Positions 5,837 through 61,502 of a DNA stretch of 64,000 nucleotides are shown here, piece by piece (position 1 is the stretch's first letter; each line of letters starts with the position of its first letter). The DNA comes from Geobacteraceae bacterium. GTDB lineage: Bacteria > Desulfobacterota > Desulfuromonadia > Geobacterales > Geobacteraceae. A program made the translations under genes and the position numbers. The notes under the pieces were generated by a model. It was not told the DNA's origin. It did no database searches and was given only the letters and a program-made list of their open reading frames with translations. Location: contig JAQUHN010000002.1 in NCBI GenBank assembly GCA_028683555.1, positions 1,233-65,232 of the forward strand, in the 5' to 3' direction.

Positions 5837-5880
5837 GGCCGAAATCCTGAAAGGTACTCTTTCCGGGTTTCGGCCTTTTC
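5837..5880 (+). terminator. putative intrinsic terminator after tsf
   Basis: ggccgaaatcc...gggtttcggcc imperfect inverted repeat followed by ttttcgttt. Confidence 0.5.
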
Positions 5881-5962
5881 GTTTGACACGATTGTGTCTT
5901 TAGCTGTTCGATGTCCGTTGCCGGGGAGTTCGTCCTCCACGGGAGAGTGAGAAAAGAGAAAC

Positions 5963-6682
5963 ATGAACAGATCGCGGTACAAAAGAGTACTGTTGAAGTT
6001 GTCCGGCGAGGCCTTGGCTGGCGAGCAGAAATATGGTATAGATCCGAAGACCATTACCGATATTGCCGCAGAGATCAAGGATGTAGTTGCCTGTGGAGCA
6101 GAAATGGCTCTTGTTATCGGTGGCGGCAATATCTTCCGCGGACTCGCGGCCTCATCCAAAGGAATGGACAGGGCCAGTGCCGACTATATGGGGATGCTTG
6201 CCACCATGATCAACTCCCTGGCAATGCAGGATGCTTTGGAAAAAATTGGCGTGGACACGCGAGTCCAGTCTGCTATCGAGATGCGCGAAGTTGCCGAGCC
6301 GTACATTCGTCGCCGTGCAATCAGGCATCTGGAAAAGGGCCGGGTCATCATACTCGGCGCCGGTACCGGGAACCCCTACTTCACTACTGATACCGCGGCA
6401 AGTTTGCGGGCCATGGAGATTGGCGCCGAGGTGATTCTGAAGGGGACCAAGGTAGATGGTGTCTACTCAGCTGATCCCATGAAAGACCCCAATGCCTCAA
6501 AGTTTTCACGGTTGAGCTACATCGATGTTTTGAAGAAGGGGCTGCAGGTAATGGACGCTACCGCCACGTCCCTCTGCATGGATAACGGCTTGCCGATCAT
6601 CATCTTTGATGTTACCACTGTGGGCAACATTAAAAAGGTTGTTCTCGGTGAAGAAATAGGTACTATCGTAAAAGGAGAGTGA
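5963..6682 (+). CDS. pyrH: UMP kinase
   Basis: [22 protein letters not shown]...[10 protein letters not shown]... is the classic PyrH pattern. Confidence 0.95.
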
Positions 6683-6683
6683 T

Positions 6684-7241
6684 ATGACCAAGGATGTCCT
6701 TGCTTCCATGAAAAGTCACATGGAGAAGACCCTCGATGCCCTCCGCAAGGAGTATCAGAAGGTCCGGACTGGCCGCGCCAGTACGGCTCTGCTGGAAGAT
6801 ATCAAAGTCAATTATTACGATACCCCGACGCCCATCAATCAGGTTGCAGCTGTAGCTGTTCCGGAGCCCAGGGTCATAACCATTCAACCCTGGGAGGCCA
6901 AGCTGATACCCCAGATAGAGAAAGCAATTCTCAATGCGAATATCGGCCTCACTCCGACAAACGACGGCAAGCTGATTCGTCTGGCTGTGCCGGCTTTAAC
7001 CGAGGAACGGCGCAAAGAGATTGTCAAACAGCTGAAGAAGATGGCTGAAGACTCAAAGATCGCGTTGCGGAATATTCGACGCGATGCCATCGACTCTCTG
7101 AAAAAGCTGGAAAAAGATAAAAATATTTCCGAAGATGACTTGAAGCGTTCAGAGAAGGATGTCCAGGACGTAACGAATTCTTATGTGGCCAAGGTTGACG
7201 ATGTTGTGGCCGCCAAAGAAAAAGAGGTCATGGAAGTCTGA
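6684..7241 (+). CDS. frr: ribosome recycling factor
   Basis: [43 protein letters not shown]... Starts 1 nt after pyrH. Confidence 0.95.
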
Positions 7242-7331
7242 GTTTTGTCCTTGTGCTGCAACAATGCGACACCACTCTTCCTGCAGGATTTCGCGGGCGT
7301 TTTACTTGTACTTTTACAGTTTCATCCCAAT

Positions 7332-7359
7332 AACCCCTTTTCCAAAGGGGGTTTTTTTT
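7332..7359 (+). terminator. intrinsic terminator after frr
   Basis: aaccccttt-tcc-aaaggggg hairpin followed by a T8 run. It ends 10 nt before the uppS ATG. Confidence 0.6.
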
Positions 7360-7369
7360 AGGACCAGGT

Positions 7370-8110
7370 ATGCACAAACTCGATCCGGAAAAGTTGCCCA
7401 AACACCTCGCGATTATCATGGATGGTAATGGTCGCTGGGCTCAGGAACGGATGCTGAAGAGAATAGTCGGTCATCGAAAAGGGGTTGAGACGGTCAGGAC
7501 CATTGTCGAGGAAAGTTCGCTGCTCGGAATCAAGTTCCTTACGCTCTTTGCCTTTTCATCGGAAAACTGGCTTCGCCCGAAAACTGAGGTGCGGTCACTC
7601 ATGGCGTTGCTGAAAGCGTATCTGGCCAAGGAAACCAGTCGCTTGATGACCAATAACATCAGGTTTGCCGTTATTGGTGATCGCTCCGACCTTCCTGAAG
7701 ACGTTGACCGAGCAGTCGCCGACGCCATTGAGAAAACCTCACGGAATACCGGTATGGTCCTCACCCTGGCACTTTCCTACGGGTCGCGACAGGAAATTAC
7801 CAATGCGGTATCGCGTCTGGCTGATGACCTGCTGTCCGGACAGCTTTCCCGCGAAGAGATTTCCGAGGAACGCATCTCCTCGTATCTCTACACCAGCGAC
7901 ATTCCCGAGCCTGATTTCTTGATCCGAACCAGTGGCGAGATGCGTATCAGCAATTTTCTGCTTTGGCAAATTGCCTACACCGAGCTGTATTTTACCGAGG
8001 TCAACTGGCCGGATTTCAACAAGCAGGAATTTTACCGTGCCCTTGCCAATTACCAGGCAAGAGAACGTCGCTATGGCCAGATCAGCGATCAGGTTCGAAA
8101 GAGGAGGTAA
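7370..8110 (+). CDS. uppS: undecaprenyl-diphosphate synthase (isoprenyl transferase)
   Basis: PKHLAIIMDGNGRWA...FAFSSENWLRP...IRTSGEMRISNFLLWQIAYTELYF. Confidence 0.9.
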   Translation: MHKLDPEKLPKHLAIIMDGNGRWAQERMLKRIVGHRKGVETVRTIVEESSLLGIKFLTLFAFSSENWLRPKTEVRSLMALLKAYLAKETSRLMTNNIRFAVIGDRSDLPEDVDRAVADAIEKTSRNTGMVLTLALSYGSRQEITNAVSRLADDLLSGQLSREEISEERISSYLYTSDIPEPDFLIRTSGEMRISNFLLWQIAYTELYFTEVNWPDFNKQEFYRALANYQARERRYGQISDQVRKRR

Positions 8111-8112
8111 GT

Positions 8113-8898
8113 ATCAAACGCCTTGTTACGGGCTTGGTAGCCCTTCCCATTCTTATTGCATTTATTCTGAAATCAGGCTTTTTTCCTTTTTTCTGCCTGA
8201 TTTTCGCGCTGACGGCGGTGGGGCTCCTCGAGTTCTATCGGATGGCGATTCCTGAGCGAAAAAACGAGGGCTTGTTTGCCGCTCTTGCCGGTTCAATGCT
8301 GCTGCCGGTGCTGGTGTTCGATTTTCTGCCGTTTTCTCTCGGTCTCACCCTGCTGGTTCTCCTGTTTACCCTTCTTTCCCTGGTCAAGATAAAGGACATA
8401 AAACAGTCTGCCGCTGAAACCGGTCTGATTTTCCTCGGGTTTCTTTATCTGCCCCTGCTCATGAGCTATTTGGTCCTGCTGCGAAACATGACGCATGGAG
8501 TGGAGTGGATATTTCTCCTGCTGATTATTGTCATGTCAGGAGACACCGGGGCGTTTTATGTGGGGAGTTCTCTCGGCAAGAGAAAGCTGTATCCAATCGT
8601 CAGCCCGAACAAGAGCGTAGAGGGAATGATCGGCGGACTTGCCGGCAGTATTGTCGGCGCACTTCTTGCCTGTGCTACATTTTTTCCGGAACTTACACCT
8701 GCAAAAGCTGTCGTGGCAGCGATTCTCGTCGGGTTGGTCGGGCAGTTGGGAGACCTGTTTGAATCCTTGCTGAAGCGGAGCTTTGCTGTGAAGGATTCCG
8801 GCAACCTGTTTCCCGGGCACGGTGGTATGCTGGACCGTCTTGACAGTGTTCTTTTTGCGGCGCCGACATTATACCTGTTTGCACGATACCTGTTCTGA
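8113..8898 (+). CDS. cdsA: phosphatidate cytidylyltransferase (CDP-diglyceride synthase); start codon uncertain
   Basis: Multi-TM protein ending in the CdsA signature SLLKRSFAVKDSGNLFPGHGGMLDRLDS. The ORF-track ATG 7963 would overlap uppS by 148 nt. CdsA-like sequence begins around IKRLVTGLVALPIL. Only ATC 8113 (5 nt after GAGGAGG) or TTG 8134 are available as starts. Confidence 0.8.
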   Translation: MKRLVTGLVALPILIAFILKSGFFPFFCLIFALTAVGLLEFYRMAIPERKNEGLFAALAGSMLLPVLVFDFLPFSLGLTLLVLLFTLLSLVKIKDIKQSAAETGLIFLGFLYLPLLMSYLVLLRNMTHGVEWIFLLLIIVMSGDTGAFYVGSSLGKRKLYPIVSPNKSVEGMIGGLAGSIVGALLACATFFPELTPAKAVVAAILVGLVGQLGDLFESLLKRSFAVKDSGNLFPGHGGMLDRLDSVLFAAPTLYLFARYLF

Positions 8899-9163
8899 AT
8901 GTTTCCCGACTGCTTTGCCTGCTGTAATTTGCAGCGGAGCTGGAAAAGTGAAACCCCGCATTCCCCTGTTATCAATGGTTCCCGGTAGGCAACAATGGGC
9001 GGGAACTGTTTGTTGTTCAATTTTCTCTTTCGAAAACTTTTCAGGCTGCGCCGTTTCACGGCGCGTTTCCGGTGACTTCCTGTTTTGCTGGCAATAGACG
9101 AAGGTTTCCTTTATCCTTACCAGGTTGCCGATCACCTGCCTGTAGAAAAAACTGTCGAGGATT

Positions 9164-10318
9164 ATGATGAAAAAGCTTTCCGTACTCGGTTCAACCGGGT
9201 CTATCGGTGTCAGTACCCTGGAAATTGTTGCCGCCCATCGCGACAAATTTGAAATTGTTGCCCTTACCGGCGGCAATAATCTGCAGCTTCTGAAAAAACA
9301 GATTGAAGAGTTTTCCCCCCAGGTTGCAGCGGTAATTTCTGAACAGTCGGCACGCGAACTGCGAAGCATGCTGCCGGGGGTGAAGACAGAAATTCTCCAT
9401 GGGGTGCCGGGAATGATAGCCGCGGCCACCGCCGCAGACGCAACCATGGTGGTTGCCGCCATTGTAGGCGCCGCAGGGCTTGTGCCAACTGTTGCGGCAA
9501 TCAAGGCCGGCAAGGATATTGCGCTTGCCAACAAGGAAACCCTCGTCACCGCCGGTCACCTGATCATGGACATGGTCAAAGAGCAGGGGGTTCGGCTGTT
9601 CCCGGTTGACAGCGAACACAGTGCAATCTTTCAGTCTCTCGAGGGGCACCGGAGTGATGATGTAAGCCGGATCATTCTTACCGCATCCGGTGGGCCGTTC
9701 TTCCAGTATCCGCTTGATAAGCTGCGCGAGGTTTCCATTGCTGATGCGTTGAATCATCCCAACTGGAGCATGGGGCGAAAAATCACGATAGATTCCGCAA
9801 CCATGATGAACAAGGGGCTTGAAGTCATTGAAGCCAAATGGCTGTTCGACCTGCCGGTGGAAAAAATATCGGTTGTCATCCATCCCCAGAGCATCATCCA
9901 TTCGTTGGTGGAATATGTCGACGGTTGTGTTATTGCCCAGTTGGGGATTCCCGACATGAAAGCTCCGATTGCCTATGCCCTTACCTATCCGGAGCGGGTA
10001 GAGACCGGAGTTCGCGGGCTCGATCTGACAGCTATCGCATCACTGAACTTTTTCCAACCCGATTTAGAGCGTTTTCCGGCTTTGCAGTTGGCGTTCCGTG
10101 CTGCCGGAGAGGGTGAAAGCATGCCGGCGGTGATGAACGCCGCGAATGAAGTGGCAGTCGATGCTTTCCTGTCCGGAAAAATTAAATTTACCGATATCGC
10201 GATGCTTATCGAGAAGACGATGGATGCCCATAACGCCCATACCCTCAATTCCATTGATGAGGTTCTGAGTGCCGACCTGTGGGGCAGAAAGAAAACAAGA
10301 GAGCTGATTGGTCAGTAG
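9164..10318 (+). CDS. dxr: 1-deoxy-D-xylulose-5-phosphate reductoisomerase
   Basis: [20 protein letters not shown]...LANKETLV...DSEHSAIFQ...NHPNWSMG. Confidence 0.95.
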
Positions 10319-10327
10319 GGAGAATGC

Positions 10328-11398
10328 ATGATCATAAGTATACTATCCGCAATTGTTGTCCTCGGCATACTGATATTTGTCCATGAACTGGGCCATTTTC
10401 TCTTTGCAAAATTTTTCGGCGTAGGGGTTGAGACGTTTTCCCTGGGTTTCGGTCCGAAGATCCTTGCCAAACAGATTGGAGAAACCGAATATCGTATTTC
10501 GGCTTTTCCGCTTGGCGGTTACGTGAAGATGATTGGTGAAAGCCTCGATGATGAACTGCCCGAGGAAGATGTCGAGCGTTCTTTTATGGCAAAAGCTCCA
10601 GTGAAGCGGATGGTCATCGTGGCTGCCGGGCCTTGCTTCAATCTCATCTTCGCCTACCTGGTGTTCATTATCGTCTGCATGATCGGCGTTCCCACTGCTA
10701 CTACGCAGATCGGCGAGGTGATGGCCGATATGCCGGCGGCACGGGCCGGGCTCCGGACAGGGGACCGGGTTACGGCCATCGACGGCAAGCCGGTAAGTCG
10801 CTGGAATGATCTGGCGCTGCTGATTTCCGAAAGTGGCGGCAAGCCGGTTGAACTCATCGTGCAACGGGACGGTAAAACCTTCCCGTTGAAGGTTACCCCC
10901 GAGATGCGCACCGCAAAGAACCTGCTCGGCGAGACCGTCACTTCCCCGGCGATCGGCGTAATGGTTTCAAAGGAGTTCGTTACCGAGCGGGTAGGGCCGC
11001 TGGATGCTGTGGTCAAGGGAACAGAACATACCTGGAACGTTACCAAAATGACGGTCATTGCCGTGGCCAAACTTTTTAGCGGCTCCATTTCGGTAGACAA
11101 TATCGGCGGACCCATCATGATAGCCAAAACGGCTGGTGAGCAGGCTGAAACGGGTTTGGTCTACTTTCTGTCGTTCATGGCTCTGCTCAGCATCAATCTG
11201 GGACTGCTCAATCTACTTCCCGTCCCGATTCTGGATGGCGGCCACCTGGTTTTCTATGCCTGGGAGATGATAGTGGGCAAACCGGTGCACCTGAAGGCCC
11301 GTGAAATTGCCCAGCAGATCGGCCTGGTGTTGCTGGTCGGGTTGATGGTGCTGGCCTTTTACAATGATATCGCCAGATACCTGGTCGGGCAGGGTTGA
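10328..11398 (+). CDS. rseP: RIP site-2 zinc metalloprotease RseP
   Basis: HELGHFLFAKFFGV zinc motif, central PDZ-like segment, C-terminal NLLPVPILDGGH. Confidence 0.9.
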   Translation: MIISILSAIVVLGILIFVHELGHFLFAKFFGVGVETFSLGFGPKILAKQIGETEYRISAFPLGGYVKMIGESLDDELPEEDVERSFMAKAPVKRMVIVAAGPCFNLIFAYLVFIIVCMIGVPTATTQIGEVMADMPAARAGLRTGDRVTAIDGKPVSRWNDLALLISESGGKPVELIVQRDGKTFPLKVTPEMRTAKNLLGETVTSPAIGVMVSKEFVTERVGPLDAVVKGTEHTWNVTKMTVIAVAKLFSGSISVDNIGGPIMIAKTAGEQAETGLVYFLSFMALLSINLGLLNLLPVPILDGGHLVFYAWEMIVGKPVHLKAREIAQQIGLVLLVGLMVLAFYNDIARYLVGQG

Positions 11399-11399
11399 T

Positions 11400-12095
11400 G
11401 TGAAACTGCTTATTATTGATACGTCTACGACTACCAACAGCGTGGCTCTTACGGTTGACGGACGTCTCGTTGCCGAGTATCTTGTCAACCCGGACAGACC
11501 CCATTCTTCCAGCCTGATGAGCGGTCTTGACCAGGTCATGACGAGTGCCGCGGTATCCGTCCACTCATTGGATGCCATTGGCGTCACGCTGGGTCCCGGG
11601 TCTTTTACCGGTCTGCGGGTCGGCATTGCCTCCGCCAAGGGGTTGGCACTTGCGATCGGGAAACCGGTTGTCGCCTTTTCCTCTCTCGCCATGCTTGCCA
11701 TGAATCTGCCCCACGCGGCATATCCGGTTTGTCCCATGTTTGACGCAAAAAAGAACGAAGTTTATGCCGCGCTGTATCGCTGTCGCGATTTGCCGGAAAC
11801 GCTACTGAGTGATTGCGTTATGCCGCCGGCTGAGTTCCTGTCGCACATTCGGCAGCCTACCCTGTTTGTCGGCAGTGGCGCTTTGCGGTACTGCGACATG
11901 ATTGTGGAAACACTGGGAGATCTGGCCATTTTCGCGCCATCGGTTTGCCACCAGCCTCGTGCCTCGGCAGGAGCACTTTTGGCAGCCGATCTGTTTGCCC
12001 GTGGGGAATTTGTCCCGGCCGGTGCGCTTGTCCCATCCTATCTCAGGGCTTCCGAGGCGGAGTTGGCGCGCATGAAAAAGGAATTGAAGGTATAA
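11400..12095 (+). CDS. tsaB: tRNA t6A biosynthesis protein TsaB (YeaZ)
   Basis: GTG 11400 gives VKLLIIDTSTTTNSVAL...GPGSFTGLRVGIASAKGLA. It starts 2 nt after the rseP stop. Confidence 0.85.
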   Translation: MKLLIIDTSTTTNSVALTVDGRLVAEYLVNPDRPHSSSLMSGLDQVMTSAAVSVHSLDAIGVTLGPGSFTGLRVGIASAKGLALAIGKPVVAFSSLAMLAMNLPHAAYPVCPMFDAKKNEVYAALYRCRDLPETLLSDCVMPPAEFLSHIRQPTLFVGSGALRYCDMIVETLGDLAIFAPSVCHQPRASAGALLAADLFARGEFVPAGALVPSYLRASEAELARMKKELKV

Positions 12096-12190
12096 TGGCC
12101 TGGTATCTCCATATTGACAGTGATGGACGAATGTATTAAGGTTCTTCTTTAAACATTTGTATAGGAATTGACTAAAGAGGTTACACAATT

Positions 12191-13852
12191 ATGCGCAGTG
12201 ACATGATAACCCAAGGACTTGAGCGGACACCGCACCGCGCCCTTCTGAAAGGTACCGGCGTTCCGCAGAGTGAGATGGATAAACCCTTTATCGGTGTTGC
12301 AACCAGTTTTACCGACCTGATCCCGGGTCACGTTGGCATGCGGGATCTTGAACGCTTTATTGAAAAAGGGGTACATACCGGGGGTGGCTATTCTTTTTTC
12401 TTTGGCATACCCGGTGTATGTGACGGTATTGCCATGGGGCATAAGGGGATGCACTACTCGCTTCCGACCCGTGAGCTGATTGCCGATATGGTCGAATCGA
12501 TCGCAGAGGCACATCGTCTTGACGGCCTCGTACTGCTTACCAATTGTGACAAAATTACCCCGGGAATGCTAATGGGTGCTGCCCGGCTCAATATTCCTTC
12601 CATCGTAGTCACCGCCGGTCCGATGTTGTCTGGCAGAGGTTCTGATGGTCGTCGCTACTCTTTTGTTACTGATACCTTTGAAGCGATGGCTCGCTATAAG
12701 GCCGGAGTAATAGATGGCAAGGAACTTCAGGTCTGTGAGGAAAATGCCTGCCCCGGTATCGGATCCTGTCAGGGGCTTTTTACTGCCAATACCATGGCTA
12801 TCCTGACGGAAACCCTCGGCATGAGTCTGCCCCGTTGCGGTACCGCCCTTGCCGTTTCAGCCCTTAAACGCAGAATTGCCTTTGCCTCTGGGGAGAAAAT
12901 AGTCGAGTTGGTTAAAAATCAGGTGACACCCCGTCAGATATTGACCCGAGAGGCTTTTGAGAATGCTATCCGCGTCGATCTGGCCCTTGGCGGGTCTTCC
13001 AATACGGTCCTGCACCTGCTTGCCATCGCCCGCGAGGCCGGCGTCGATCTTCCCCTCGAAACTTTCGATATCCTGGCACGACAGACGCCGCAGCTTGCTT
13101 CCATGAATCCAGCCGGCGAGCATTTCATGGAGGATCTGGACGTTGCGGGGGGAGTGCTCGGCGTGTTGAAGCAGCTTGGTGACCGCATCAAAGACAGCAA
13201 GACGGTGATGGGCCTTGGCACGCTCGAACTTGTATCCAGCATTGACCGGGTGGACGAGTCGGTGATTCGGCCGGTGGACAAGCCGGTGAAGAAAGAGGGC
13301 GGAATTGCCGTCCTGTTCGGCAATCTTGCTCCGAAGGGTGCTGTCGTCAAGCAGTCGGGCGTGTCGGATGTCATGATGCATTTTACCGGAAAGGCTCGCT
13401 GCTTCAATTCCGAGGAAGAAGCCATGGCGGCCCTAATGGACGGCAAGATTGTTTCCGGGGATATTATGGTGATTCGCTATGAAGGCCCGAAAGGGGGCCC
13501 CGGAATGCGCGAGATGCTTGCTCCTACGGCGGCAATCATGGGCCTTGGTCTTGGTGATTCGGTTGCACTCATAACCGACGGACGTTTTTCCGGAGGGACG
13601 CGTGGTCCCTGTATCGGTCACATTTCACCGGAAGCGGCAGAAGGCGGCCCCATTGCCCTGGTGGAAGAGGGTGATCAAATCCTGCTCGATATTCCCAATC
13701 GCACGCTGCAATTGCTTGTTGATGATGAAACACTCAAACAACGGCAGGCAGCCTGGCAGCGGCCGGAACCGAAAATCAAGACCGGTTGGTTGTCTCGCTA
13801 TGCCAAGGTGGTCACGTCTGCCTATACTGGTGCGATTACTACCGGGGACTAG
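12191..13852 (+). CDS. ilvD: dihydroxy-acid dehydratase
   Basis: [23 protein letters not shown]...[10 protein letters not shown]...TDGRFSGGT. Confidence 0.95.
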
Positions 13853-18896: not shown

Positions 18897-19149
18897 TTAT
18901 CTTTACAACAATTACTAAAAGCTGTGAAGAGGAGTAGTAGTTCCCGCACTTTTCTCCAGAGAGCCGGTGGGTGGTGCAAACCGGTGTGAAGGGGGGACGA
19001 ACTCGCCTTGGAGCTGTTTCGGTGAATTTTATCTAGCCGAAGCCGTACCCCGCGTCAAGGGAGCAATGAGGTCCGCAGCAGCGGATAAATAAGGGTGGTA
19101 TCGCGGAGCACAAAGCCTTCGCCCCTTTGATGGGGTGAAGGCTTTTTTA
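18897..19149 (+). promoter_or_regulatory. T-box leader (Leu specifier) controlling leuA
   Basis: Stem I elements: gtgaaga K-turn-like, AGTAGTAG, AGAGAG bulge, GGTGGTGCAAA distal loop. GAA-CTC-G specifier context (CTC at 19002-19004). T-box sequence aaTAAGGGTGGTAtCGCGGA at 19089-19108. The competing terminator lies directly downstream. Confidence 0.8.
19112..19149 (+). terminator. T-box terminator hairpin
   Basis: aaagccttcgcccc / ggggtgaaggcttt, 14 bp including one G-U pair, 6-nt loop, followed by a T run. Confidence 0.75.
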
Positions 19150-46195: not shown

Positions 46196-47302
46196 ATGAA
46201 CATAAAAACTGCTTTTTCCGTACAAGAAACCGCTGAACGGAGCGTCAATGATATTGCCCGACAATTCGAGATGTTCGATACTGAAATGGTTCTGTTCTTC
46301 TCCTCGACGAAATATGCGCCGGAAAGTATCAGTAGCCTGATGCAAAATGCCTTCCCCATGGCTCAGGTATTTGGTTGTACTACGGCAGGAGAAATCGCTT
46401 CCGGGAAAATGTTGGAGAACTCGATTGTGGCCATGGCCTTCAACGGCCAGGCGATCAAGGATGCAAAGATCGAGGTTATTGAAAATCTTCATGACGAAAA
46501 TGCCGTCAGGGCAGCACTTGAATCTTTCGGGTCCTACTTTAACGAGCCTGTGGCGGATATGGATCCGGCAACCTATGTGGGGATCATTCTTGTCGATGGC
46601 TTGAGCGGTGCCGAGGAAGGTCTGATGGAAACCATTGGCGACCTGACCAATGTTACCTTTATCGGCGGTTCGGCAGGTGATGATCTGAAGTTTGCCTCTA
46701 CAAAGGTTTATGCGCAGGGCAAAAGCTATTCCAATGCGGCGGTTTTGGCAATGCTGAAACCGGGCGTAGAGTTCAGCTTTATCAAGACGCAGAGTTTCCG
46801 TGACCTGGGAAAAAGCCTGGAAGTGACGAAGGCGATTGAAGCGCAGCGTGAGGTTGTCGAATTCAACGGCAAGCCGGCTGCGGTTGCCTATGCCGAAGCT
46901 GTCGGGACCAGCGTCGAAGAAGCTGCCAAGCATTTCATGCATAACCCTGTTGGCCTGTTTATCGAGGACGAGCCGTATGTTCGCAGCCCGCAGCAGATCA
47001 AGGGTGACAGCATGTTGTTTTACTGCAGCGTGATGGAGGGAATGGAGCTGTCCCTGCTGGAAGGCACCGACATGATCGGCGATACCCGGCAGGCACTCGA
47101 GCTGGCGAAATCGGAGCTCGGCAGCATATCCGGCCTGGTTGCCTTCAACTGTATCCTCAGGACGCTGGAACTGCGCCAGAATAATCTCGAGCAGGCGTAC
47201 GGCGAACTGTTTGCGAATATTCCTACTGTCGGTTTCAGTTCCTATGGTGAAGAGTACATCGGTCATATCAATCAGACCGCTACTATGCTGGTATTCAAAT
47301 AG
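46196..47302 (+). CDS. FIST N/C-domain sensor protein (NosP-like)
   Basis: MVLFFSSTKY...VFGCTTAGEI...FIGGSAGDDLKF...GFSSYGEEYIGHINQTATMLVF are characteristic FIST_N/FIST_C landmarks. AGGAGG Shine-Dalgarno. Confidence 0.8.
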   Translation: MNIKTAFSVQETAERSVNDIARQFEMFDTEMVLFFSSTKYAPESISSLMQNAFPMAQVFGCTTAGEIASGKMLENSIVAMAFNGQAIKDAKIEVIENLHDENAVRAALESFGSYFNEPVADMDPATYVGIILVDGLSGAEEGLMETIGDLTNVTFIGGSAGDDLKFASTKVYAQGKSYSNAAVLAMLKPGVEFSFIKTQSFRDLGKSLEVTKAIEAQREVVEFNGKPAAVAYAEAVGTSVEEAAKHFMHNPVGLFIEDEPYVRSPQQIKGDSMLFYCSVMEGMELSLLEGTDMIGDTRQALELAKSELGSISGLVAFNCILRTLELRQNNLEQAYGELFANIPTVGFSSYGEEYIGHINQTATMLVFK

Positions 47303-47316: not shown

Positions 47317-47347
47317 CCCGGAAAAATGGTGTTCCGGGCTGGTTTTT
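47317..47347 (+). terminator. possible terminator after the FIST gene
   Basis: cccggaa-aaatggtg-ttccggg followed by ctggttttt. Confidence 0.4.
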
Positions 47348-47744: not shown

Positions 47745-48518
47745 ATGCCTGTTCACTATGAAGAAAGTATCGACTTGATGAACAAGGACGGTGGGCTGAA
47801 AGGAAATCTATCGCTCACCAATATTACCGACTTGCTGCAGTTCCTTTCCTCCAGTGCAAAAAGCGGTGTGATCCGTTTGCAAAGCCATCCCGGCGGCGAG
47901 GAAGGGAAGATTCACTTTGTGGGCGGGGAACTGGTCTCGGTGGTGTCCAAAAACCTGTCTGGGCTGGAGGGGCTTGCCGATTTGTTGTCCTGGGATCAGG
48001 GTACCTTTCATTTTCTTCCCGGGGTGGCTGCCCAAAAGACAAACATCGGACTATCGGTACAACATGCAATTATGGAAGCGGTCGTGCTTTTGGATAAACA
48101 GGCCAGTACTACGGTGAATGAGACTTTGAGATCAGATGAAAGGAGCTTTGATATGCAAGAGGCCGAAAGAAGTTCCACCGAGGTAATGAACGATTTGCTG
48201 GAAATTCCCGGTATTGATGCGGTCGTGGTCGTCGGACGAGACGGTTTCGTCATCGAATCCGCCGGGAGCAGTGCACGGGTGAATATTGACGAACTGGGAG
48301 CATCCCTGGCCCATTCAATCAACGGTATTGAGGAAATGGGCAGCGAACTGAATGTCAACCGGTTTCAGGACATGTTCATTGAGTACGGAAGGGCGGTTAT
48401 CATGTGCCGGCCGGTTGGCGACGCAGTTGCGGCTATCATTACTCCGGATGCCTCCAAGCTCGGGATTATCAGGCACAAGACCAGAAAGCTCTTTGAAGAG
48501 CTCGGCCACTCATTCTAG
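47745..48518 (+). CDS. DUF4388 (PATAN)-like domain fused to a Roadblock/LC7/MglB-like domain
   Basis: LKGNLSLTNITDLLQFLSSSAKSGVIRLQ...GKIHFVGGELVSV...GLADLLSWDQGTFHF, then LLEIPGIDAVVVVGRDGFVIESAGS...AAIITPDASKLGIIRHK. Confidence 0.75.
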   Translation: MPVHYEESIDLMNKDGGLKGNLSLTNITDLLQFLSSSAKSGVIRLQSHPGGEEGKIHFVGGELVSVVSKNLSGLEGLADLLSWDQGTFHFLPGVAAQKTNIGLSVQHAIMEAVVLLDKQASTTVNETLRSDERSFDMQEAERSSTEVMNDLLEIPGIDAVVVVGRDGFVIESAGSSARVNIDELGASLAHSINGIEEMGSELNVNRFQDMFIEYGRAVIMCRPVGDAVAAIITPDASKLGIIRHKTRKLFEELGHSF

Positions 48519-48530
48519 GGGGAGTGTTCA

Positions 48531-49046
48531 ATGGCGTTGAGATTAGAATACAGTCACGATGATGAAACACATCGTAATTTTCTGAACGGTCAACCAGTTG
48601 TCATGCATTCGCACCATTATCTTGCACTGATAACAAAGCTAGTGGAAGACTTGGCTGATATGAGCGCGCCCGAGATTCTCCGCGATGCCGTGGAAGATAC
48701 CATGCGGGCGGTTTTCGATGATTATATCGCGAAAAACGGTCTTACTTCAGCCCAGGACAGATGCAACGTTGGCAGGGAATATTTTTCCGTATTCGGCCTC
48801 GGTAAAATGGTGATTACCGGGGATGAGAATGGCGGCGAGATTCGGTTGCTCCGCTCCCATGTTGATGAGGGTTGGGTTAAGAAATGGGGCGTACATAATA
48901 AACCGATTAACCACTTTACCTGCGGCTATGTTGCGGCCATGTTCGGAGCGGCATTCAACAAGCCTGCACGGAGTTACGTGGTTACCGAGGTTGCCAGCAT
49001 TGCGGCGGGAGATTCGGAAGGAAAGTTTATTGTCAAGACATCCTGA
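48531..49046 (+). CDS. V4R (4-vinyl reductase)-like small-molecule-binding protein
   Basis: GGGGAG Shine-Dalgarno. C-terminal HFTCGYVAAMFGAAFNKPARSYVVTEVASIAAGDSEGKFIV follows the V4R pattern C.F..G...G....V.V.E..C.A.GD..C.F.V, with the distal Cys residues replaced. Confidence 0.65.
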   Translation: MALRLEYSHDDETHRNFLNGQPVVMHSHHYLALITKLVEDLADMSAPEILRDAVEDTMRAVFDDYIAKNGLTSAQDRCNVGREYFSVFGLGKMVITGDENGGEIRLLRSHVDEGWVKKWGVHNKPINHFTCGYVAAMFGAAFNKPARSYVVTEVASIAAGDSEGKFIVKTS

Positions 49047-49064
49047 TAGAGGAGGAGTTTTTTC

Positions 49065-49646
49065 ATGACCGTAATGCGTGATACCGTTGTGAAGTCACTT
49101 GCCAGGGTTACCGTCCAGGCTGATGAAAACGGTTTGATACCTGAATACGAGGTGCTGGTTAACCTGCTTCCCGTTGCACTGCTGAATACCTTCATGGAGA
49201 GAATCATGGCGGCTGCTCCTCCTGAAAGGAAGGCCGAGGTGGAAGCGGGGCTGGTCCGGGCGGCGTATGAATGCGGCTATCATACCGGCTGCGGCATTAT
49301 TACCTCGGATATTTTCAATGAAGTGGTTCTGCCGATGGTTACCGAAGGAGAAAAGGACATCCTGCGTGGCGCATATGCCGCTTTTACCGCATGGGGGTGG
49401 GCTAAATCGGGAATCGTACAGCTGAAAGAAGCGGAAAAGATGGTTATTCGTGCCTTTGATTACTATGAGGCGGACAGTGGCGGTGACGGCCTGCGCGGTT
49501 TCATGCTCCGCGGATTGAGTCAGGCTTTCTTCGACCTTGCCTATGCGGATCCGTATCCGGACGGCATGGATACCTTTGTGTGCCATCAGACAAAGGGTAT
49601 TGAAGCGGGCGATCCCTACGGCGAATTTATCGTGGTGAAGAAGTAA
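49065..49646 (+). CDS. V4R-like small-molecule-binding protein (paralog)
   Basis: GAGGAGG Shine-Dalgarno. C-terminal GFMLRGLSQAFFDLAY...MDTFVCHQTKGIEAGDPYGEFIVV. Confidence 0.6.
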   Translation: MTVMRDTVVKSLARVTVQADENGLIPEYEVLVNLLPVALLNTFMERIMAAAPPERKAEVEAGLVRAAYECGYHTGCGIITSDIFNEVVLPMVTEGEKDILRGAYAAFTAWGWAKSGIVQLKEAEKMVIRAFDYYEADSGGDGLRGFMLRGLSQAFFDLAYADPYPDGMDTFVCHQTKGIEAGDPYGEFIVVKK

Positions 49647-49704
49647 CGAAAGCCACGGTACGAATCATTTTCAGGCAGCTGAGTCGATATCTACGGAGTT
49701 TTTA

Positions 49705-50616
49705 GTGGTCGATCATGTCGTTGGACTTATAGACGGGCATTCCTTTGAGGTTGCCTTGCGAAATGCCGTTGAGGTCAGGTGGAGCGGCATTCTGAACGCT
49801 ATGCAGGGTCCGCAGCAGGTTGGCGTGGTCGTCTTGCAGGATGGTCACATTGCCTGGGCGGTCAGCAACAACCAGACCGAAAATTTTGCTTCCTTTCTGG
49901 AGCGCATCGGTATGGTGCCCAAGGATAAGCTCAATGAAGTCGTGCACAAGTATCGTTCACTGGGAAAGTCGAAAAAACTTGGGACCCTGCTGGAAGAGAC
50001 CGGCCTGATTTCTCATGCTACGTTACGTGACTGTCTTAAGGCCCATGTCAGCGCGGCGCTTTCATCCATGATGGGTGATACTGGAATCATCCTCCAGGCA
50101 AAGGGCGGCGAGATGATTGTGGATTCGAGCCTGATATTTCTTCTGGGAGAAGTGTATCCTGCTTCTCCCGAAGAGAATTCCGCGGAAATTCCGCTAGGTG
50201 TCGTGGATGGATTGGACATGGTAGTGCAAAAAGAGGAGGCATCGCCGGCGGAACCTGATTTCCTGCTGGACCTCGCGGCACTTCCCGGCTACCTCTACTC
50301 ACTGGTTGCAAGCAGCGACGGCAATGCGATTGCTTCCCATGTTGCAGATGGTGAGGCTGTCGAGATACGGCAGGTGCTCCCGGTGCTTCTTGAATGGCTC
50401 GAGGCATCATCCCTCGGTTCTGTCGATATGGGAATGGGGATGGTTTTGTTCGAATTCATTCAGAGTGAGAAGGGTTCTTTATTTATTCATATGGTCGGCA
50501 CGGAGAGCCGTCACTTCCTTGCCGTTGCCTGTGATGAGAAGGCAAAACTTGGAGTTGTCAGGCATAAGATGTCGGAAATAATACCTGAAGTCCGGAAACT
50601 GACGGAAATGCAGTAA
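49705..50616 (+). CDS. DUF4388 (PATAN, with helical insertion)-like domain fused to a Roadblock-like domain
   Basis: GTG start. WSGILNAMQGPQQVGVVVLQDGHIAWA...FLERIGMVPKDKLNEVV...LGTLLEETGLISHATLRDCL..., then LPGYLYSLVASSDGNAIASHV...HFLAVACDEKAKLGVVRHK. Confidence 0.7.
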   Translation: MVDHVVGLIDGHSFEVALRNAVEVRWSGILNAMQGPQQVGVVVLQDGHIAWAVSNNQTENFASFLERIGMVPKDKLNEVVHKYRSLGKSKKLGTLLEETGLISHATLRDCLKAHVSAALSSMMGDTGIILQAKGGEMIVDSSLIFLLGEVYPASPEENSAEIPLGVVDGLDMVVQKEEASPAEPDFLLDLAALPGYLYSLVASSDGNAIASHVADGEAVEIRQVLPVLLEWLEASSLGSVDMGMGMVLFEFIQSEKGSLFIHMVGTESRHFLAVACDEKAKLGVVRHKMSEIIPEVRKLTEMQ

Positions 50617-50635
50617 CACGGATTGGGGAGACGAA

Positions 50636-51451
50636 ATGGCTAATATTGTTTCCATTGTTAGTTCCAAAGGAGGTACCGGAAAGACCACGGTTGCCCTCAA
50701 CCTTGCCGTCGCACTGGCCGAAGCCGGCGATCGCACCCTGTTGATTGATGCGGATCCGCTTGGCGCAATCGGTTTTTCGCTTGGTCAAGGTGATACCGAG
50801 TGGACAGGCCTTGCGGAGTACCTGATGAAGAGGGCTGAGCTCGATGAAACGCTCATCCAGACGAAGCTTCCTTTCTTGTCGATTTTGCCGCGGGGACGTC
50901 TGGATCCTTTGGATGTGGGGATTTACGAGGAAATGCTTAATGCCACGGCGGCACTGGCCGACATCATCGCCGCGGTGGAAGATGATTTCCGCTACGTCAT
51001 CATTGATACTCCTTCCGGTTTGGGGCTTGTAACCAGAGCTGCCCTTGCCGTTAGCACTTTTGCCCTCATTCCCTTGCAGGCGGAACCACTTGCCTTGCGG
51101 GCAATTTCGCAGACCCTGAGGGTTCTGCAGCATATCAAGGAAAATGAGAATAGCGATCTGCATCTGCTCGGCATTCTTGCCACCATGGTGCAGTTGAATA
51201 AAGACGTATCGTTCAATATCATGAATACCGTCTGGGCGTCTTTGGACGGGGTGCTTGAAACATACGTCCCCCGGGCAGATGTCTTCCATGTTGCAAGTGA
51301 GAAGGGGTTGCCCGTATCGTTCTTGCCGGGTAAATATCCTCCTGAAGCAATCAGGTTCGAGTTGCTGGCTACGGAGATTAAAGACATCATTCAAGGTATG
51401 GGTGGTGTGACAGGAGAGCTTGATGAAAGACCGCAGCGTGAACTCATATGA
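50636..51451 (+). CDS. ParA/MinD-family P-loop ATPase (orphan; no ParB nearby)
   Basis: Deviant Walker A IVSIVSSKGGTGKTTVALNLA, LLIDADP, YVIIDTPSG. Confidence 0.85.
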   Translation: MANIVSIVSSKGGTGKTTVALNLAVALAEAGDRTLLIDADPLGAIGFSLGQGDTEWTGLAEYLMKRAELDETLIQTKLPFLSILPRGRLDPLDVGIYEEMLNATAALADIIAAVEDDFRYVIIDTPSGLGLVTRAALAVSTFALIPLQAEPLALRAISQTLRVLQHIKENENSDLHLLGILATMVQLNKDVSFNIMNTVWASLDGVLETYVPRADVFHVASEKGLPVSFLPGKYPPEAIRFELLATEIKDIIQGMGGVTGELDERPQRELI

Positions 51452-52019
51452 TCTGACTGAAGCGCAAAAGATCCTCACTTCCCTTGCTCCATCGACGGGA
51501 ACGGCGTCCCAGGAAAAATCGGTTTCTGCATCAACACCAGGATATCTACGCCTGTCGAAAGAATTTCTGCCGCAGAAAGTTTCGCGCGCAGCAGTGCCGT
51601 CCCTCGAAGATTCCATGGATACCGCTGCTGAGAAAGAAAATCTTCAACCGCAGAAATTCACCAGTTGGGAAAGCTGCATTGCCTGGTGTATGAGCATACT
51701 GCGCGCTGATGCTGCTTTTGTGGTTGACTCGCAAGGTTTTATCATTGCCAGTCGGGGCCGGGTTCCCAGCCACGGTTTCGAAGGTACCGGTGCGGAACTG
51801 GTCTGTTCCGTGGAGCAGTTGGAAAGAGTTGAGCCTGATGCCGGCAAGCTACTTTGGGTGGATCTGGATTATGATAAACGCAGGGTTGCCGCTTTTGTAA
51901 CACCATCGGAAAATGCCGATTTCTTTGTGCTTGGGTTTATTGCGCCCGATCCAGCGTACCATTCACTGAAACAGATTGTTACCCGCCAGATTATCGAGAA
52001 CCTGCCTCATCTTGACTAG
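51423..52019 (+). CDS. hypothetical protein with a Roadblock-like C-terminal half
   Basis: Overlaps the ParA-like gene by 29 nt. N-terminal ~90 aa are S/T/P/E-rich. Then CMSILRADAAFVVDSQGFIIASRG...RVAAFVTPSENADFFVLGFIAPD. Confidence 0.55.
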   Translation: MKDRSVNSYDLTEAQKILTSLAPSTGTASQEKSVSASTPGYLRLSKEFLPQKVSRAAVPSLEDSMDTAAEKENLQPQKFTSWESCIAWCMSILRADAAFVVDSQGFIIASRGRVPSHGFEGTGAELVCSVEQLERVEPDAGKLLWVDLDYDKRRVAAFVTPSENADFFVLGFIAPDPAYHSLKQIVTRQIIENLPHLD

Positions 52020-52166
52020 CAGGTTGTGAGTAATATCTGCGGAGAGTCGTTTAGTGTCGATGCTGTGCGACGCATTCGGCATTACGCACGTTGTTTTTCG
52101 GCAGAGTATTGCAAGGCACCTGCATCCAACTGACAAGCTCTGTAATCGTACCGCCAGACAGACAAG

Positions 52167-52215
52167 ACTCCAGAGCTCTTTTCCCTCAAGGGGGAAAGAG
52201 CTCTGGAGTTTTTTC
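52167..52215 (+). terminator. strong intrinsic terminator about 150 nt downstream of the cassette
   Basis: actccagagctcttttccc-tcaa-gggggaaagagctctggagt (~19-bp stem) followed by T6. Confidence 0.8.
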
Positions 52216-59586: not shown

Positions 59587-59961
59587 ATGGCAAAAAAATT
59601 TCTGTTGGTCGATGACTCTCCCATTTCCCGCAAGATGCTGAAAAGCTGTATTCCCGTCGAAGGCGTGGCGGAATTCCTCGAGGCGGGAGATGGTCTGAAA
59701 GGGTTGAACGTCTTCAAGGAAGCATCGCCGGACATTACTTTTCTCGACCTCACCATGCCGGTGATGGACGGTGTACAGGCTTTGGAAGAGATGAAAAAGC
59801 ATGATCCGGATGCCGTGATTATCGTTGCAACAGCGGACATTCAGGCAAAATCTATTGAAAAGGTTATGGCTTTGGGTGCATTCCATGTGCTGAAGAAACC
59901 TCCTACGAAAGACAGTGTCAGGGAGATACTCCAGAAAGTGGATGAATACCGGAGAAGGTAA
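59587..59961 (+). CDS. CheY-like single-domain response regulator
   Basis: KKFLLVDDSPISRKML...ITFLDLTMPVMDG...VLKKP. Confidence 0.85.
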   Translation: MAKKFLLVDDSPISRKMLKSCIPVEGVAEFLEAGDGLKGLNVFKEASPDITFLDLTMPVMDGVQALEEMKKHDPDAVIIVATADIQAKSIEKVMALGAFHVLKKPPTKDSVREILQKVDEYRRR

Positions 59962-59962
59962 C

Positions 59963-60604
59963 ATGGAACAACAAGTCTGTCATGTCACGGAAGATGAAAA
60001 GGATATTCTTCAGGAGATAATGAATATCGCCTTTGGCAAGGCGGCTGCAGATCTTGCCGAAGTGATCAATATCTTTGTGGTATTGAACGTGCCGCGGATC
60101 CAGGTTTTAAAGGGAGCCGAGCTTTCCGGATATCTTCGTGAAGAAATCAGCGATTTCAGTGATCTCAGCATCATTGAGCAGAACTTCAGGGGCAAATTCC
60201 GGGGTAGTGCTTTTCTGGTTTTTCCCTCCGGAGCCGGGAAAGAGCTGGTTGCCATGCTTGATGCGGATCATGAAGAGACTTTTGAGTCGGGAACAATCGA
60301 TCTGCTGGAAAAGGAAAGCCTCATGGAAGTGGGGAATATTCTCATAGGGGCGTGTGTCGGCAAGATGTCGGAACTTCTCGGCGATGTGGTGACCTATTCT
60401 CCGCCGAAAGTGGTGGTTGAAAATCATCCTAACGAAATCATTCCCAACAATCTCTTTAACCCGGAATATACCGCAATTGTAATGAAGACGCTTTTCCAAT
60501 TCGATGACAGGAATATCAGCGGGTTTCTGTTTCTTGTGACAACCCATGACTCTGTAGCGTGGCTGCAGCAGTCCCTTGCCCGGTTCCTCGAGCAATATGA
60601 GTGA
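59963..60604 (+). CDS. CheC-family CheY-P phosphatase
   Basis: Two CheC active-site repeats: DILQEIMN-x22-P (exact D-x3-E-x2-N-x22-P) and ESLMEVGN-x22-P. Starts 1 nt after the cheY-like stop. Confidence 0.8.
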   Translation: MEQQVCHVTEDEKDILQEIMNIAFGKAAADLAEVINIFVVLNVPRIQVLKGAELSGYLREEISDFSDLSIIEQNFRGKFRGSAFLVFPSGAGKELVAMLDADHEETFESGTIDLLEKESLMEVGNILIGACVGKMSELLGDVVTYSPPKVVVENHPNEIIPNNLFNPEYTAIVMKTLFQFDDRNISGFLFLVTTHDSVAWLQQSLARFLEQYE

Positions 60605-61502
60605 GCTTTCGCAACTATTCGATACGGTCAATATCGGCCTGGTTATCCTCGACAGGGACCTGAAAGTAAAGTACTGGAACCGTTGGATGGAATATCACAG
60701 CGGTATTGCCGCGGAACGTATCATTGGCGCCTCCCTGTTTGCGCACTTTCCCAGCCTGAATACAAGAAAATTTCTTCGCAACTGTAAATCTGTCCTCACT
60801 TTTGGCAATTTTTCCTTCTTCTCCCAGAAACTTCATCACTATCTTTTTCCTTTCAGATCTGACAGTTCTTTCGAGTCGCGCTTCGAGTTTATGCAACAGA
60901 GTTGTGCTTTGGGTCCTTTGCGGGACGAGTCGAACACCATTACCGCGCTCTACCTGACAGTTCAGGATGTGACAGAGCTTGCCTCCTATGAGCATCGGTT
61001 GCTGGAAATGAATATGCGTGATGGACTTACCGGCGTTTATAACAGGAGATTCCTGGAAAAGCGCTTGGCGGAGGAATTCGACAGGCATGTCCGGTATGCA
61101 AGGAATTTCAGTGTCATCATGTTCGATATCGACTTTTTCAAGAAGGTAAATGACACCCATGGTCACCAGTGCGGAGATTTTATTCTGAAGGGTGTGTCCG
61201 GAAAGATCGCCGCAATGATCAGAAAAACCGATTTTCTGGCGCGCTACGGCGGTGAAGAATTCTGTTGTTTGCTGCCGGAAACGGATATCGCTGCCGCGAC
61301 AGTTCTTGCGGAGCGCTTCCGGCAAACCATTGCCGGGATGGTGCACTGCTATCAGAAGACCGAAATTATTGTAACGATCAGTTTGGGCGTTTCCGGACTG
61401 AGCGGCCAGTTCCCCTCTTCCGACGTTCTCCTCAAAAGGGCTGATGATGCCCTCTATGCAGCAAAGGGTTCCGGAAGGAACCGCGTTGTTGCCTTATCTT
61501 GA
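60597..61502 (+). CDS. PAS-GGDEF diguanylate cyclase
   Basis: 8-nt overlap with the cheC-like gene. PAS-like LFDTVNIGLVILDRDLKVKYWNRWMEYHSG. GGDEF domain with intact RYGGEEF. Confidence 0.85.
   Translation: MSELSQLFDTVNIGLVILDRDLKVKYWNRWMEYHSGIAAERIIGASLFAHFPSLNTRKFLRNCKSVLTFGNFSFFSQKLHHYLFPFRSDSSFESRFEFMQQSCALGPLRDESNTITALYLTVQDVTELASYEHRLLEMNMRDGLTGVYNRRFLEKRLAEEFDRHVRYARNFSVIMFDIDFFKKVNDTHGHQCGDFILKGVSGKIAAMIRKTDFLARYGGEEFCCLLPETDIAAATVLAERFRQTIAGMVHCYQKTEIIVTISLGVSGLSGQFPSSDVLLKRADDALYAAKGSGRNRVVALS

Follow-up and report, generated by a model that had tools for sequence, protein, structure and literature searches.

A conserved gene cassette of Geobacteraceae joins V4R-fold, PATAN and Roadblock-like proteins to a ParA-type ATPase, suggestive of a cellular switch not studied before

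What might a set of Roadblock-like proteins regulate when their genes lie next to that of a ParA-type ATPase and no small GTPase is encoded beside them? This question is raised by a cassette of six genes (g1 to g6) found in a stretch of 64,000 nucleotides (nt) from a Geobacteraceae bacterium (assembly GCA_028683555.1, contig JAQUHN010000002.1, positions 1,233 to 65,232 of the forward strand), which we call the window. An earlier reading of this DNA, made from the letters alone and called here the sequence-only reading, had described six co-directional genes at 47745-52019 with gaps of 12, 18, 58 and 19 nt and an overlap of 29 nt between g5 and g6. The coordinates of the open reading frames (ORFs) confirmed this arrangement, to which our analysis adds a seventh gene (g0) on the 5' side:

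46196..47302, plus strand: g0, FIST plus FIST_C protein, NosP-like, 368 amino acids (aa); from Pfam, NCBIfam and synteny
47745..48518, plus strand: g1, PATAN domain (DUF4388, residues 19-119) followed by a Roadblock/LC7 domain (residues 146-232); from Pfam and PDB sequence matches
48531..49046, plus strand: g2, predicted V4R/XylR-N-fold protein, 171 aa; from an AlphaFold2 model and Foldseek
49065..49646, plus strand: g3, second predicted V4R-fold protein, 193 aa; from AlphaFold2, Foldseek and hhalign to g2
49705..50616, plus strand: g4, predicted PATAN domain with a helical insert and a Roadblock-like C-terminus, GTG start, optional member; from Pfam matches of relatives and hhalign
50636..51451, plus strand: g5, Soj/ParA-type ATPase with a deviant Walker A motif, 271 aa; from Pfam and PDB
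51423..52019, plus strand: g6, N-terminal peptide, variable low-complexity linker and Roadblock-like domain; from hhalign

Altogether, we found that these genes form a real conserved operon, which suggests an unstudied kind of cellular switch. We read it as a conserved sensor-adaptor-ATPase switch operon working without a dedicated small GTPase, and we hold this reading with about as much belief as doubt.

To survey the cassette in other organisms, one genome per species (GTDB) was scanned with the g2 family as query, which gave 167 species; 79 loci were then fetched and their ORFs were compared by tblastn and profile searches. A first group of 41 loci (class A), all from Desulfuromonadales-type species (Geobacteraceae, Pelobacter and Desulfuromonas), showed the order FIST-g1-g2-g3-(g4)-g5-g6, with the FIST gene directly 5' of g1 in 41 of 41 and with g5-g6 in every locus reaching far enough. 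Since this order is kept in 41 species-level genomes, the arrangement is more than chance. The cultured Geotalea uraniireducens Rf4 also carries the cassette (CP000698.1, about 3,925,354-3,930,226, complement), as FIST-g1-g2-g3-g5-g6 with the FIST gene ending 48 nt before g1, and yet it was missed by our locus list, so that the lack of G. sulfurreducens in this list is no evidence of absence. The genes that the sequence-only reading had drawn as a six-gene unit are therefore indeed co-conserved, but that unit left out the FIST gene and counted g4 as a regular member. The FIST/NosP-like gene belongs to the unit, which makes it a seven-gene unit, and g4 is an optional, dispensable member, missing from G. 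uraniireducens and, of 35 Desulfuromonadales-type loci in which g3 and g5 are both present, from 8. The g0 product matches Pfam FIST (E 6.2e-43) and FIST_C (E 5e-22), and it scores 277.7 bits over its full length against the NCBIfam NosP model (NF041558), under the equivalog cut-off of 450. A typical FIST-g1-g2-g3-g5-g6 locus (L039), with a g3 that is 82% identical, was also seen in a record titled 'Pedobacter sp.' (JBFWJC010000002.1, 805 kb); this metagenome-assembled genome (MAG) is probably mislabelled, perhaps with Pelobacter meant.

The sequence-only reading had presented g5 as a ParA/MinD ATPase with a deviant Walker A motif, g1 as a PATAN-Roadblock fusion, g4 as a PATAN-like domain with a Roadblock-like C-terminus and g6 as a low-complexity stretch followed by a Roadblock-like core, and our searches bore out the assignments of g1 and g5 and supported those of g4 and g6. 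The g5 protein matches Pfam AAA_31 (E 2e-32) and also CbiA, and its motifs SSKGGTGKTT (residues 9-18), LLIDADP and VIIDTPSG are conserved at 95% or more in 35 orthologues. Among PDB sequences it is closest to ParA/Soj structures (ParA 8ray, E 5.6e-30), and it reaches no NCBIfam equivalog cut-off for ParA, MinD, BcsQ or others (ParA_partition, 83 bits versus a cut-off of 180; minD_bact, 70.7 versus 212.9). No minC or minE gene lies near the cassette, and neither this genome nor G. uraniireducens has a ParB-type Pfam domain in the 10 kb that flank the cassette on each side. The g5 orthologues share a C-terminal tail, GGxTGxxDERPQRELI, and the tail found here, GGVTGELDERPQRELI, is charged and not amphipathic, so that no MinD-type membrane helix is evident.

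What ties this ATPase to a Roadblock-like protein is its relation to g6. The two genes overlap in all 34 scorable loci, by 29 nt in 28 of them and by 32 nt in the other 6, and an overlap of 29 nt recurs in L088 and L090, two distant loci from metagenomes in which the identity of g6 is down to 24-31%; at the place of g4, L090 encodes a REC-PATAN protein. Three distant g6 members that were inspected each come directly after a ParA-like or a partial upstream gene. Furthermore, a protein of 418 aa from a metagenome (P0509, JGI sample 3300042731) fuses a g5-like ATPase (35% identity, E 8e-52) to a complete g6; its Walker A motif is degenerate and has lost its lysines (SSIGGSGRTT). Since the overlap is conserved and one such fusion exists, we consider that the ParA-type ATPase is linked to the Roadblock-like protein. 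An N-terminal peptide, M[KN]DxxxNSYDLxxAQxIL, is common to the g6 orthologues, and the variable linker after it is the low-complexity part; this peptide and the g5 tail are candidate contact elements.

The Roadblock-like nature of g6 itself is supported by profile comparison. No Pfam match was found for g6 and only 5 of 48 members of its family match Robl_LC7; its C-terminal 115 residues align with the Roadblock profile of g1 at a probability of 94% (hhalign, E 1.5e-7). The family is small, with 232 representative clusters among 1.84 billion proteins, and some of its proteins carry the domain twice in tandem, as would suit a dimerising fold. The g1 protein that provided this profile matches DUF4388/PATAN (PF14332; cut-off 25) with 74.3 bits and E 1.1e-20 over positions 1-121 of the 122 in the model and, in its C-terminus, Robl_LC7 (PF03259) with 38.7 bits against a cut-off of 23 (E 8.4e-10). 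Compared with PDB sequences, its Roadblock domain resembles the Asgard Roadblock 7yh1 (E 5.5e-10), MglB (E 4e-4) and CvnB5 (E 0.03). As for g4, its own DUF4388 score of 21.4 bits is below the Pfam cut-off of 25, and 14 of 17 relatives match DUF4388 at E ≤ 0.01 (best E 5.6e-9; 36.5 bits for the orthologue of locus L054). The match in g4 spans 92 residues against 58 profile positions, which fits a helical insertion. Its C-terminal third aligns with the g1 Roadblock profile at a probability of 92% (hhalign, E 7e-7); Pfam Robl_LC7 is touched by one of the 17 relatives and not by the g4 of the window.

The insertion of g4 contains a further feature:

49975..50046, plus strand: MshEN/GspE_N-like motif of 24 residues, KLGTLLEETGLISHATLRDCLKAH, g4 residues 91-114, in the helical insert; from a regular expression, speculative

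A relaxed regular expression for this motif picked out 20 of the 31 g4 orthologues and none of the other ORFs of the loci (about 4,260 in all), and a comparison of g4 with NCBIfam gave the cyclic di-GMP (c-di-GMP) model c-di-GMP_motif at E 0.063 and NfrB at E 0.069. Compared by eye with what we take to be the 24-residue MshEN c-di-GMP motif, it deviates only by an R-to-K and a Q-to-H change and at one hydrophobic position. This stretch may thus be a candidate c-di-GMP site, a lead that we regard as speculative. Genes for GGDEF/EAL proteins flank the cassette in Desulfuromonas and Pelobacter loci (L046 and L056).

The g2 and g3 proteins were more elusive, as neither gave a Pfam match at E ≤ 0.1 or an NCBIfam or PDB sequence match, with single sequences or with profiles. 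Models by AlphaFold2 were then compared with Foldseek. The g2 model, with a predicted local distance difference test score (pLDDT) of 93.6, resembles the sensor domains of PoxR/MopR/DmpR (TM-score 0.77-0.80, E 7e-9) and also Bet3/TRAPPC3 and the V4R protein MJ1460. The g3 model (pLDDT 73.5, with its first 35 residues at low confidence) resembles MopR/PoxR (TM-score about 0.58, E 2.6e-5) and also TRAPPC3, BcsD and H-NOX; the Bet3/TRAPPC3 matches of the two models have E values of 1e-5 to 1e-3. The profiles of g2 and g3 align with each other across the V4R core (hhalign, probability 85%, E 5.9e-6). On these models and profiles, both proteins are predicted to adopt a V4R/XylR-N fold and to be distant paralogues. 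What had been proposed earlier, two V4R-like paralogues, therefore stands for the fold and for a distant kinship, but the sequence motifs then quoted for it are sub-threshold: Pfam V4R (PF02830) is matched by only 7 of 30 g2 relatives, at best with E 3.4e-4, and the V4R assignment thus rests on fold and not on sequence motifs.

Conservation in this pair is strong and centred on a few residues. Across phyla, g2 keeps an invariant cluster of histidine and acidic residues (H26, H28, H29, H110, D112 and E113), and its cysteines are not conserved; g3 keeps the motifs ECGYHTG, AWGWA and C173-x-QTKGIE, with two invariant cysteines, and no heme-binding motif was identified in either protein. The g3 protein is the most conserved of the cassette, with 80-93% identity within the order. 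Its family has at least 1764 clusters at 90% identity, in which every name given by a source is 'hypothetical protein' and none has a Pfam domain; NCBI and JGI label g2 either '4-vinyl reductase' or 'predicted hydrocarbon binding protein'.

These two genes stand side by side in every one of the 79 loci, a median of 18 nt apart, also where most of the cassette is missing. About a dozen loci (class B), belonging to Myxococcota, Acidobacteriota, Anaerolineae and other groups, carry g1, or in its place a protein of about 120 aa with a Roadblock domain only (Robl_LC7, E 6e-8), then g2-g3, and 3' of these a class-V aminotransferase of the cysteine-desulfurase family followed by a protein of about 95 aa. 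Three of them from Myxococcota and Acidobacteriota (L047, L053 and L054) continue with g5 and two also with g6; L047 stops at a contig end and L054 has the fullest set, g1-g2-g3-desulfurase-95aa-g4-g5-g6. About 26 other loci (class C) have only a four-gene core made of the desulfurase, the 95-aa protein, g2 and g3 (for example L059 at 8324-11137 and L066 at 8780-12517, in the range L057-L085). They come from mostly anaerobic phyla, with Planctomycetota, Verrucomicrobiota, Spirochaetota, Peptococcaceae, Syntrophomonadaceae, Armatimonadota, Riflebacteria, Gemmatimonadota, Oligoflexia and others. We conclude that the g2-g3 pair is an ancient core, much older and wider than the cassette, and independent rather than an accessory of the ATPase. 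The earlier proposal that Roadblock and ligand-binding modules are wired to a ParA/MinD-type ATPase is thus supported for the g5-g6 link, by the overlap and the fusion, and is revised for the g2-g3 pair; an action of all three Roadblock modules on the ATPase is something that we infer.

In these other loci, the pair is tied to two partners. The cysteine-desulfurase-like enzyme (TIGR01977, 336 bits) is SclA-like and has the HK and HCAP motifs. The protein of about 95 aa has one invariant cysteine (Cys14, in E-[DN]-C-[FL]-D-G-S) and an FPRPFFR motif; no Pfam or NCBIfam model covers it, and neither this protein nor g2 nor g3 has a meaningful sequence-level link to solved structures, by single sequence or profile. 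From its sequence and position, it could be a dedicated sulfur acceptor for the adjoining desulfurase. Neither of these two genes occurs in the window, and in our sample the FIST gene and the desulfurase pair exclude each other (0 of 31 versus 30 of 31, Fisher p 1e-16, a value that overstates independence because the FIST class is a single clade). In ten distant loci (L061, L064, L067, L068, L070, L072, L074, L077, L079 and L082), but not in the window, an ORF-like conserved stretch of about 70-160 codons (median about 113) lies between the 95-aa gene and g2, which could be a small gene or a conserved leader.

Signalling genes occur around the pair outside Desulfuromonadales, with methyl-accepting chemotaxis, REC-PATAN, REC-sigma54, Ser/Thr kinase, HDOD and GGDEF proteins; a minority of these loci encode a chemoreceptor, a receiver-domain protein or a PATAN protein at a distance of up to about 7 kb. 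In class B, receiver (REC) proteins, sigma-54 activators and Ser/Thr kinases adjoin g2-g3; in class C, a methyl-accepting chemotaxis protein is encoded within 7 kb in about a quarter of the loci, and HDOD proteins also occur. In L066, a chemoreceptor gene abuts g2, and its product, read by eye, seemingly has no membrane segments.

Considering these observations, we propose the following mechanism. The g2 and g3 proteins would form a heterodimeric V4R-fold module, comparable to the dimeric sensor domains of PoxR/MopR or to Bet3 heterodimers, and this module would hold a small ligand or cofactor, such as a metal, Fe-S or persulfide centre. Such a centre is pointed to by the histidine cluster of g2, the two invariant cysteines of g3 and the desulfurase and Cys-protein partners found elsewhere, and it would suit redox, nitric oxide (NO) or sulfur sensing in anaerobes. 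The V4R fold is known to bind small hydrophobic ligands and to resemble H-NOX (PMC10933270; PMC2253512). In Desulfuromonadales, the FIST/NosP-like protein would be a second input replacing the desulfurase module. The state of the sensor would then be relayed by PATAN-Roadblock adaptors, namely g1 and, in loci that have it, g4, with an insert that may bind c-di-GMP. Roadblock domains dimerise. Roadblock/LC7 proteins have been predicted to be general regulators of nucleoside triphosphatases (NTPases; Koonin and Aravind 2000, as cited in PMC4316618). These adaptors and g6 might control the ATP-dependent dimerisation of g5 or its hydrolysis of ATP, with g6 as its dedicated partner. The best candidate for an output would be the localisation or the activity of a polar machine, for example a type IV pilus motor. 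A pilus or polarity output is our leading guess because PATAN domains bind the pilus motor PilB1 in Synechocystis (10.1101/2021.06.11.447907) and because, in archaea, both Roadblock genes and MinD-like genes are found with the loci for type IV pili. In other phyla, the g2-g3 core would be combined with differing outputs.

Several points weigh against this proposal. All its mechanistic arrows come from domain content and synteny. The P0509 fusion is a single case from one metagenomic contig of 4 kb and might have arisen by a frameshift within the overlap, so that it is either a genuine Rosetta-stone fusion or a frameshift product and gives weak support. The N-terminal peptide of g6 lacks the invariant Arg/Lys that is typical of known ParA/MinD-activating peptides. 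The strict conservation of g3 fits an enzyme or a cofactor carrier equally well. The Cys4 Zn site of PoxR-type sensors (a Cys/Glu site that, in PoxR and Thor-TRAPPC3, ties sheet and helix together), located by eye from what we take to be the V4R motif, is not kept in g2 or g3: at the presumed positions g2 has C131, E153 and, at the other two, Ser and Glu, and g3 has no CxG. In this genome, the FIST gene may be transcribed separately, since a weak hairpin with a T-rich tail at 47317-47338, possibly a partial terminator, follows it. Finally, the Roadblock proteins could have as their real client an MglA-type GTPase from another part of the genome.

This last point leads to the alternative that survives best, although we consider it unlikely: g1, g4 and g6 would be orphan MglB-like GAP/GEF (GTPase-activating or guanine nucleotide exchange) or scaffold proteins for a distal MglA/SofG-type GTPase, and the ParA-type ATPase would act in parallel and not as their client. 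The resemblance of the g1 Roadblock domain to MglB and CvnB fits this explanation, as do the PATAN genes known as mglA/mglB neighbours (Makarova et al. 2006, as cited in PMC4316618) and the 328 orphan MglB homologues listed as uncharacterised by Wuichet and Søgaard-Andersen in 2014. With an M. xanthus MglA sequence as a tblastn probe, however, we found no match in the 64-kb window and none within 10 kb in 78 of the 79 loci. The remaining locus (L049, Anaerolineae) gave a match of 52% identity, which indicates that the query works as a probe. Homologous cassettes therefore do not always carry an adjacent MglA, and the earlier statement that the cassette encodes no GTPase, kinase or ParB was found to hold both there and within 10 kb. 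The association of g6 with ParA-like genes also speaks against a distal client, as it overlaps g5 in every scorable locus, is once fused to a g5-like protein and belongs to a small family whose three inspected distant members follow ParA-like or partial upstream genes. L049 itself speaks for a GTPase, as it carries at 5394-9851 an MglA-like gene along with a TPR-Roadblock gene and two receiver genes directly 5' of g1-g2-g3-desulfurase-95aa; this locus may be a bridge between GTPase-based and ATPase-based versions.

Slightly less probable still is a role in cargo positioning, in which g5 would be a ParA-like positioner and g6 its adaptor (as in McdA/McdB, PpfA/TlpT or PomXYZ), with the V4R pair and the PATAN-Roadblock proteins as an enzyme or cofactor-handling cargo. 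The proximity of g5 to ParA/Soj proteins would fit, as would the layout of g6 with a peptide, a linker and a dimerisation domain, which we take to be typical of ParA partners, and the enzyme-like conservation of g3, which is found together with a cysteine-desulfurase-like enzyme dependent on pyridoxal phosphate. Against it, ParA is missing from 35 of the 38 g2-g3 loci outside Desulfuromonadales, showing that the pair needs no positioning, and in other phyla it is surrounded by signalling proteins, not by the enzymes of one pathway. In addition, g5 has no conserved basic residue at the position that we take, by eye, to match the DNA-binding R189 of Soj, which is a weak argument.

Further down in probability, and in our eyes improbable, comes a bacterial counterpart of TRAPP-Ragulator, in which a Bet3/V4R heterodimer and Roadblock dimers would make a platform setting the nucleotide state of a ParA-type (SIMIBI) ATPase, the V4R pair carrying a metal, Fe-S or persulfide centre and being redox- or NO-responsive. 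If true, the pairing of V4R and Roadblock proteins would be an ancient regulatory platform independent of the type of NTPase. Chance juxtaposition, or a mobile or defence island, is hardly credible, as the order is kept in 41 species with parts of it across phyla, as no integrase or transposase lies nearby and as PADLOC gave only a trivial P-loop match to g5, for which an anti-phage defence role was also discarded.

Returning to the proposed sensor-adaptor-ATPase operon, two hairpins were found along it:

47317..47338, plus strand: weak hairpin with a T-rich tail, 3' of the FIST gene; from a consensus scan, 7-bp stem with 5 GC pairs
52166..52211, plus strand: intrinsic-terminator-like hairpin, 20-bp stem and T run, 147 nt past g6; from a consensus scan

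Judged by its sequence, the second would be a strong terminator and the operon end. The spacing between the FIST gene and g1 differs among genomes, with 442 nt here versus 48 nt in G. uraniireducens, and an Rfam scan of this 442-nt gap for a riboswitch or leader gave no match even at E ≤ 1. A sigma-54 promoter candidate (TGGCGG-N5-GTGC) 78 nt 5' of g1 was rejected, as it is not kept across 40 related loci. A purine run resembling a Shine-Dalgarno sequence precedes all six starts, the poorest being that of g4 (ACGGAG). The g6 ORF opens mechanically at TTG 51420, and public gene callers use ATG 51423. An ORF of 352 aa on the minus strand (50558-51616), antisense to g5, is in no public gene call and was treated as a shadow ORF. 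The G+C content is unremarkable, and proteins identical to those of the window also occur on contigs of 136-180 kb in metagenomes of hydrocarbon-degrading cultures (NCBI label 'MAG: Geobacteraceae bacterium'). Elsewhere in the window, a T-box leader at 18915-19129 on the plus strand (125 bits versus a gathering score of 93) is the sole Rfam family. About 7.5 kb 3' of the cassette (59588-60605 onward) are genes for a receiver protein, a CheC/CheX-like phosphatase and a PAS-GGDEF protein, with a heavy-metal P-type ATPase gene and a cation-efflux gene between them and the cassette.

In the literature that we searched, no description was found of the cassette, which the sequence-only reading had also not recognised, or of the desulfurase-95aa-V4R-V4R core. 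If our reading is true, the idea of Roadblock proteins as NTPase regulators would extend from small GTPases and dynein to ParA/MinD ATPases, and some of the approximately 330 uncharacterised 'orphan MglB' proteins would gain a concrete and testable partner. The g2-g3 genes would then also point to a new cofactor-based sensor, as a widespread pair that is named only 'hypothetical' or '4-vinyl reductase' and that is tied to a cysteine-desulfurase-like enzyme. A link with type IV pili, if true, would matter for the motility of Geobacteraceae and perhaps also for surface attachment and extracellular electron transfer. Since the cassette is present in the cultured G. uraniireducens Rf4, these predictions are directly testable.

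The comparison with known systems shows where the cassette may belong. Like the actinobacterial conservon (CvnA-D), it has a Roadblock protein in a conserved multi-gene signalling operon with an NTPase, but it lacks the histidine kinase, the DUF742 protein and the MglA-like GTPase. With the stand-alone gas/redox sensors H-NOX and NosP it shares a NosP-like FIST protein and proteins of H-NOX-like fold beside signalling outputs, with a chemoreceptor near g2-g3 elsewhere; the FIST protein is however below the NosP equivalog cut-off and the outputs are PATAN, Roadblock and ParA proteins instead of kinases or cyclases. The phenol sensors PoxR/MopR/DmpR (XylR_N plus V4R) are the best structural matches to g2 and g3 and are dimeric small-ligand sensors, whereas g2 and g3 stand alone, always as a pair of two paralogues, and are not N-terminal domains of sigma-54 activators; their invariant residues are others (the His cluster and ECGYHTG), and the Cys-rich Zn site, as we take it by eye to be, is not kept.

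At the level of the fold only, the cassette also resembles the TRAPP and Ragulator complexes of eukaryotes and Asgard archaea, in which paralogous Bet3/V4R-fold and Roadblock-type subunits stand beside a P-loop NTPase, and the homology of V4R and Bet3 is established (PMC2253512). Unlike them, it has no Rab/Rag GTPase and no longin proteins, and the fold of g2 and g3 is nearer to bacterial sensors than to Bet3. With ParA/MinD systems (ParABS, MinCDE, PomXYZ, McdAB and PpfA/TlpT) it has in common the deviant Walker A motif and ParA/Soj similarity of g5, as well as a small, translationally coupled partner with an N-terminal peptide, a linker and a dimerisation domain. Here, however, the partner is Roadblock-like, its peptide has no conserved basic residue, ParB/parS, MinC/E and PomX/Y are missing and a MinD-type amphipathic C-terminus is not evident; no paper on a Roadblock-fold partner of a ParA/MinD ATPase was found in the literature searched.

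The last system is MglA/MglB of Myxococcus xanthus, with RomR/RomX and MglC. The cassette differs from it by having no Ras-like GTPase and no RomR/RomX, by a SIMIBI-class ParA-type protein as its sole NTPase and by the addition of two V4R-fold proteins and FIST. In both, Roadblock dimers regulate, or in the cassette would regulate, a P-loop NTPase switch, PATAN proteins are encoded alongside, as Makarova et al. 2006 noted for PATAN-mglB neighbourhoods (as cited in PMC4316618), and the hosts are deltaproteobacterial lineages; moreover, the g1 Roadblock domain is detectably similar to MglB. The MglA/MglB polarity module, together with these PATAN-mglB neighbourhoods, appears to be the nearest functional analogue of the cassette.

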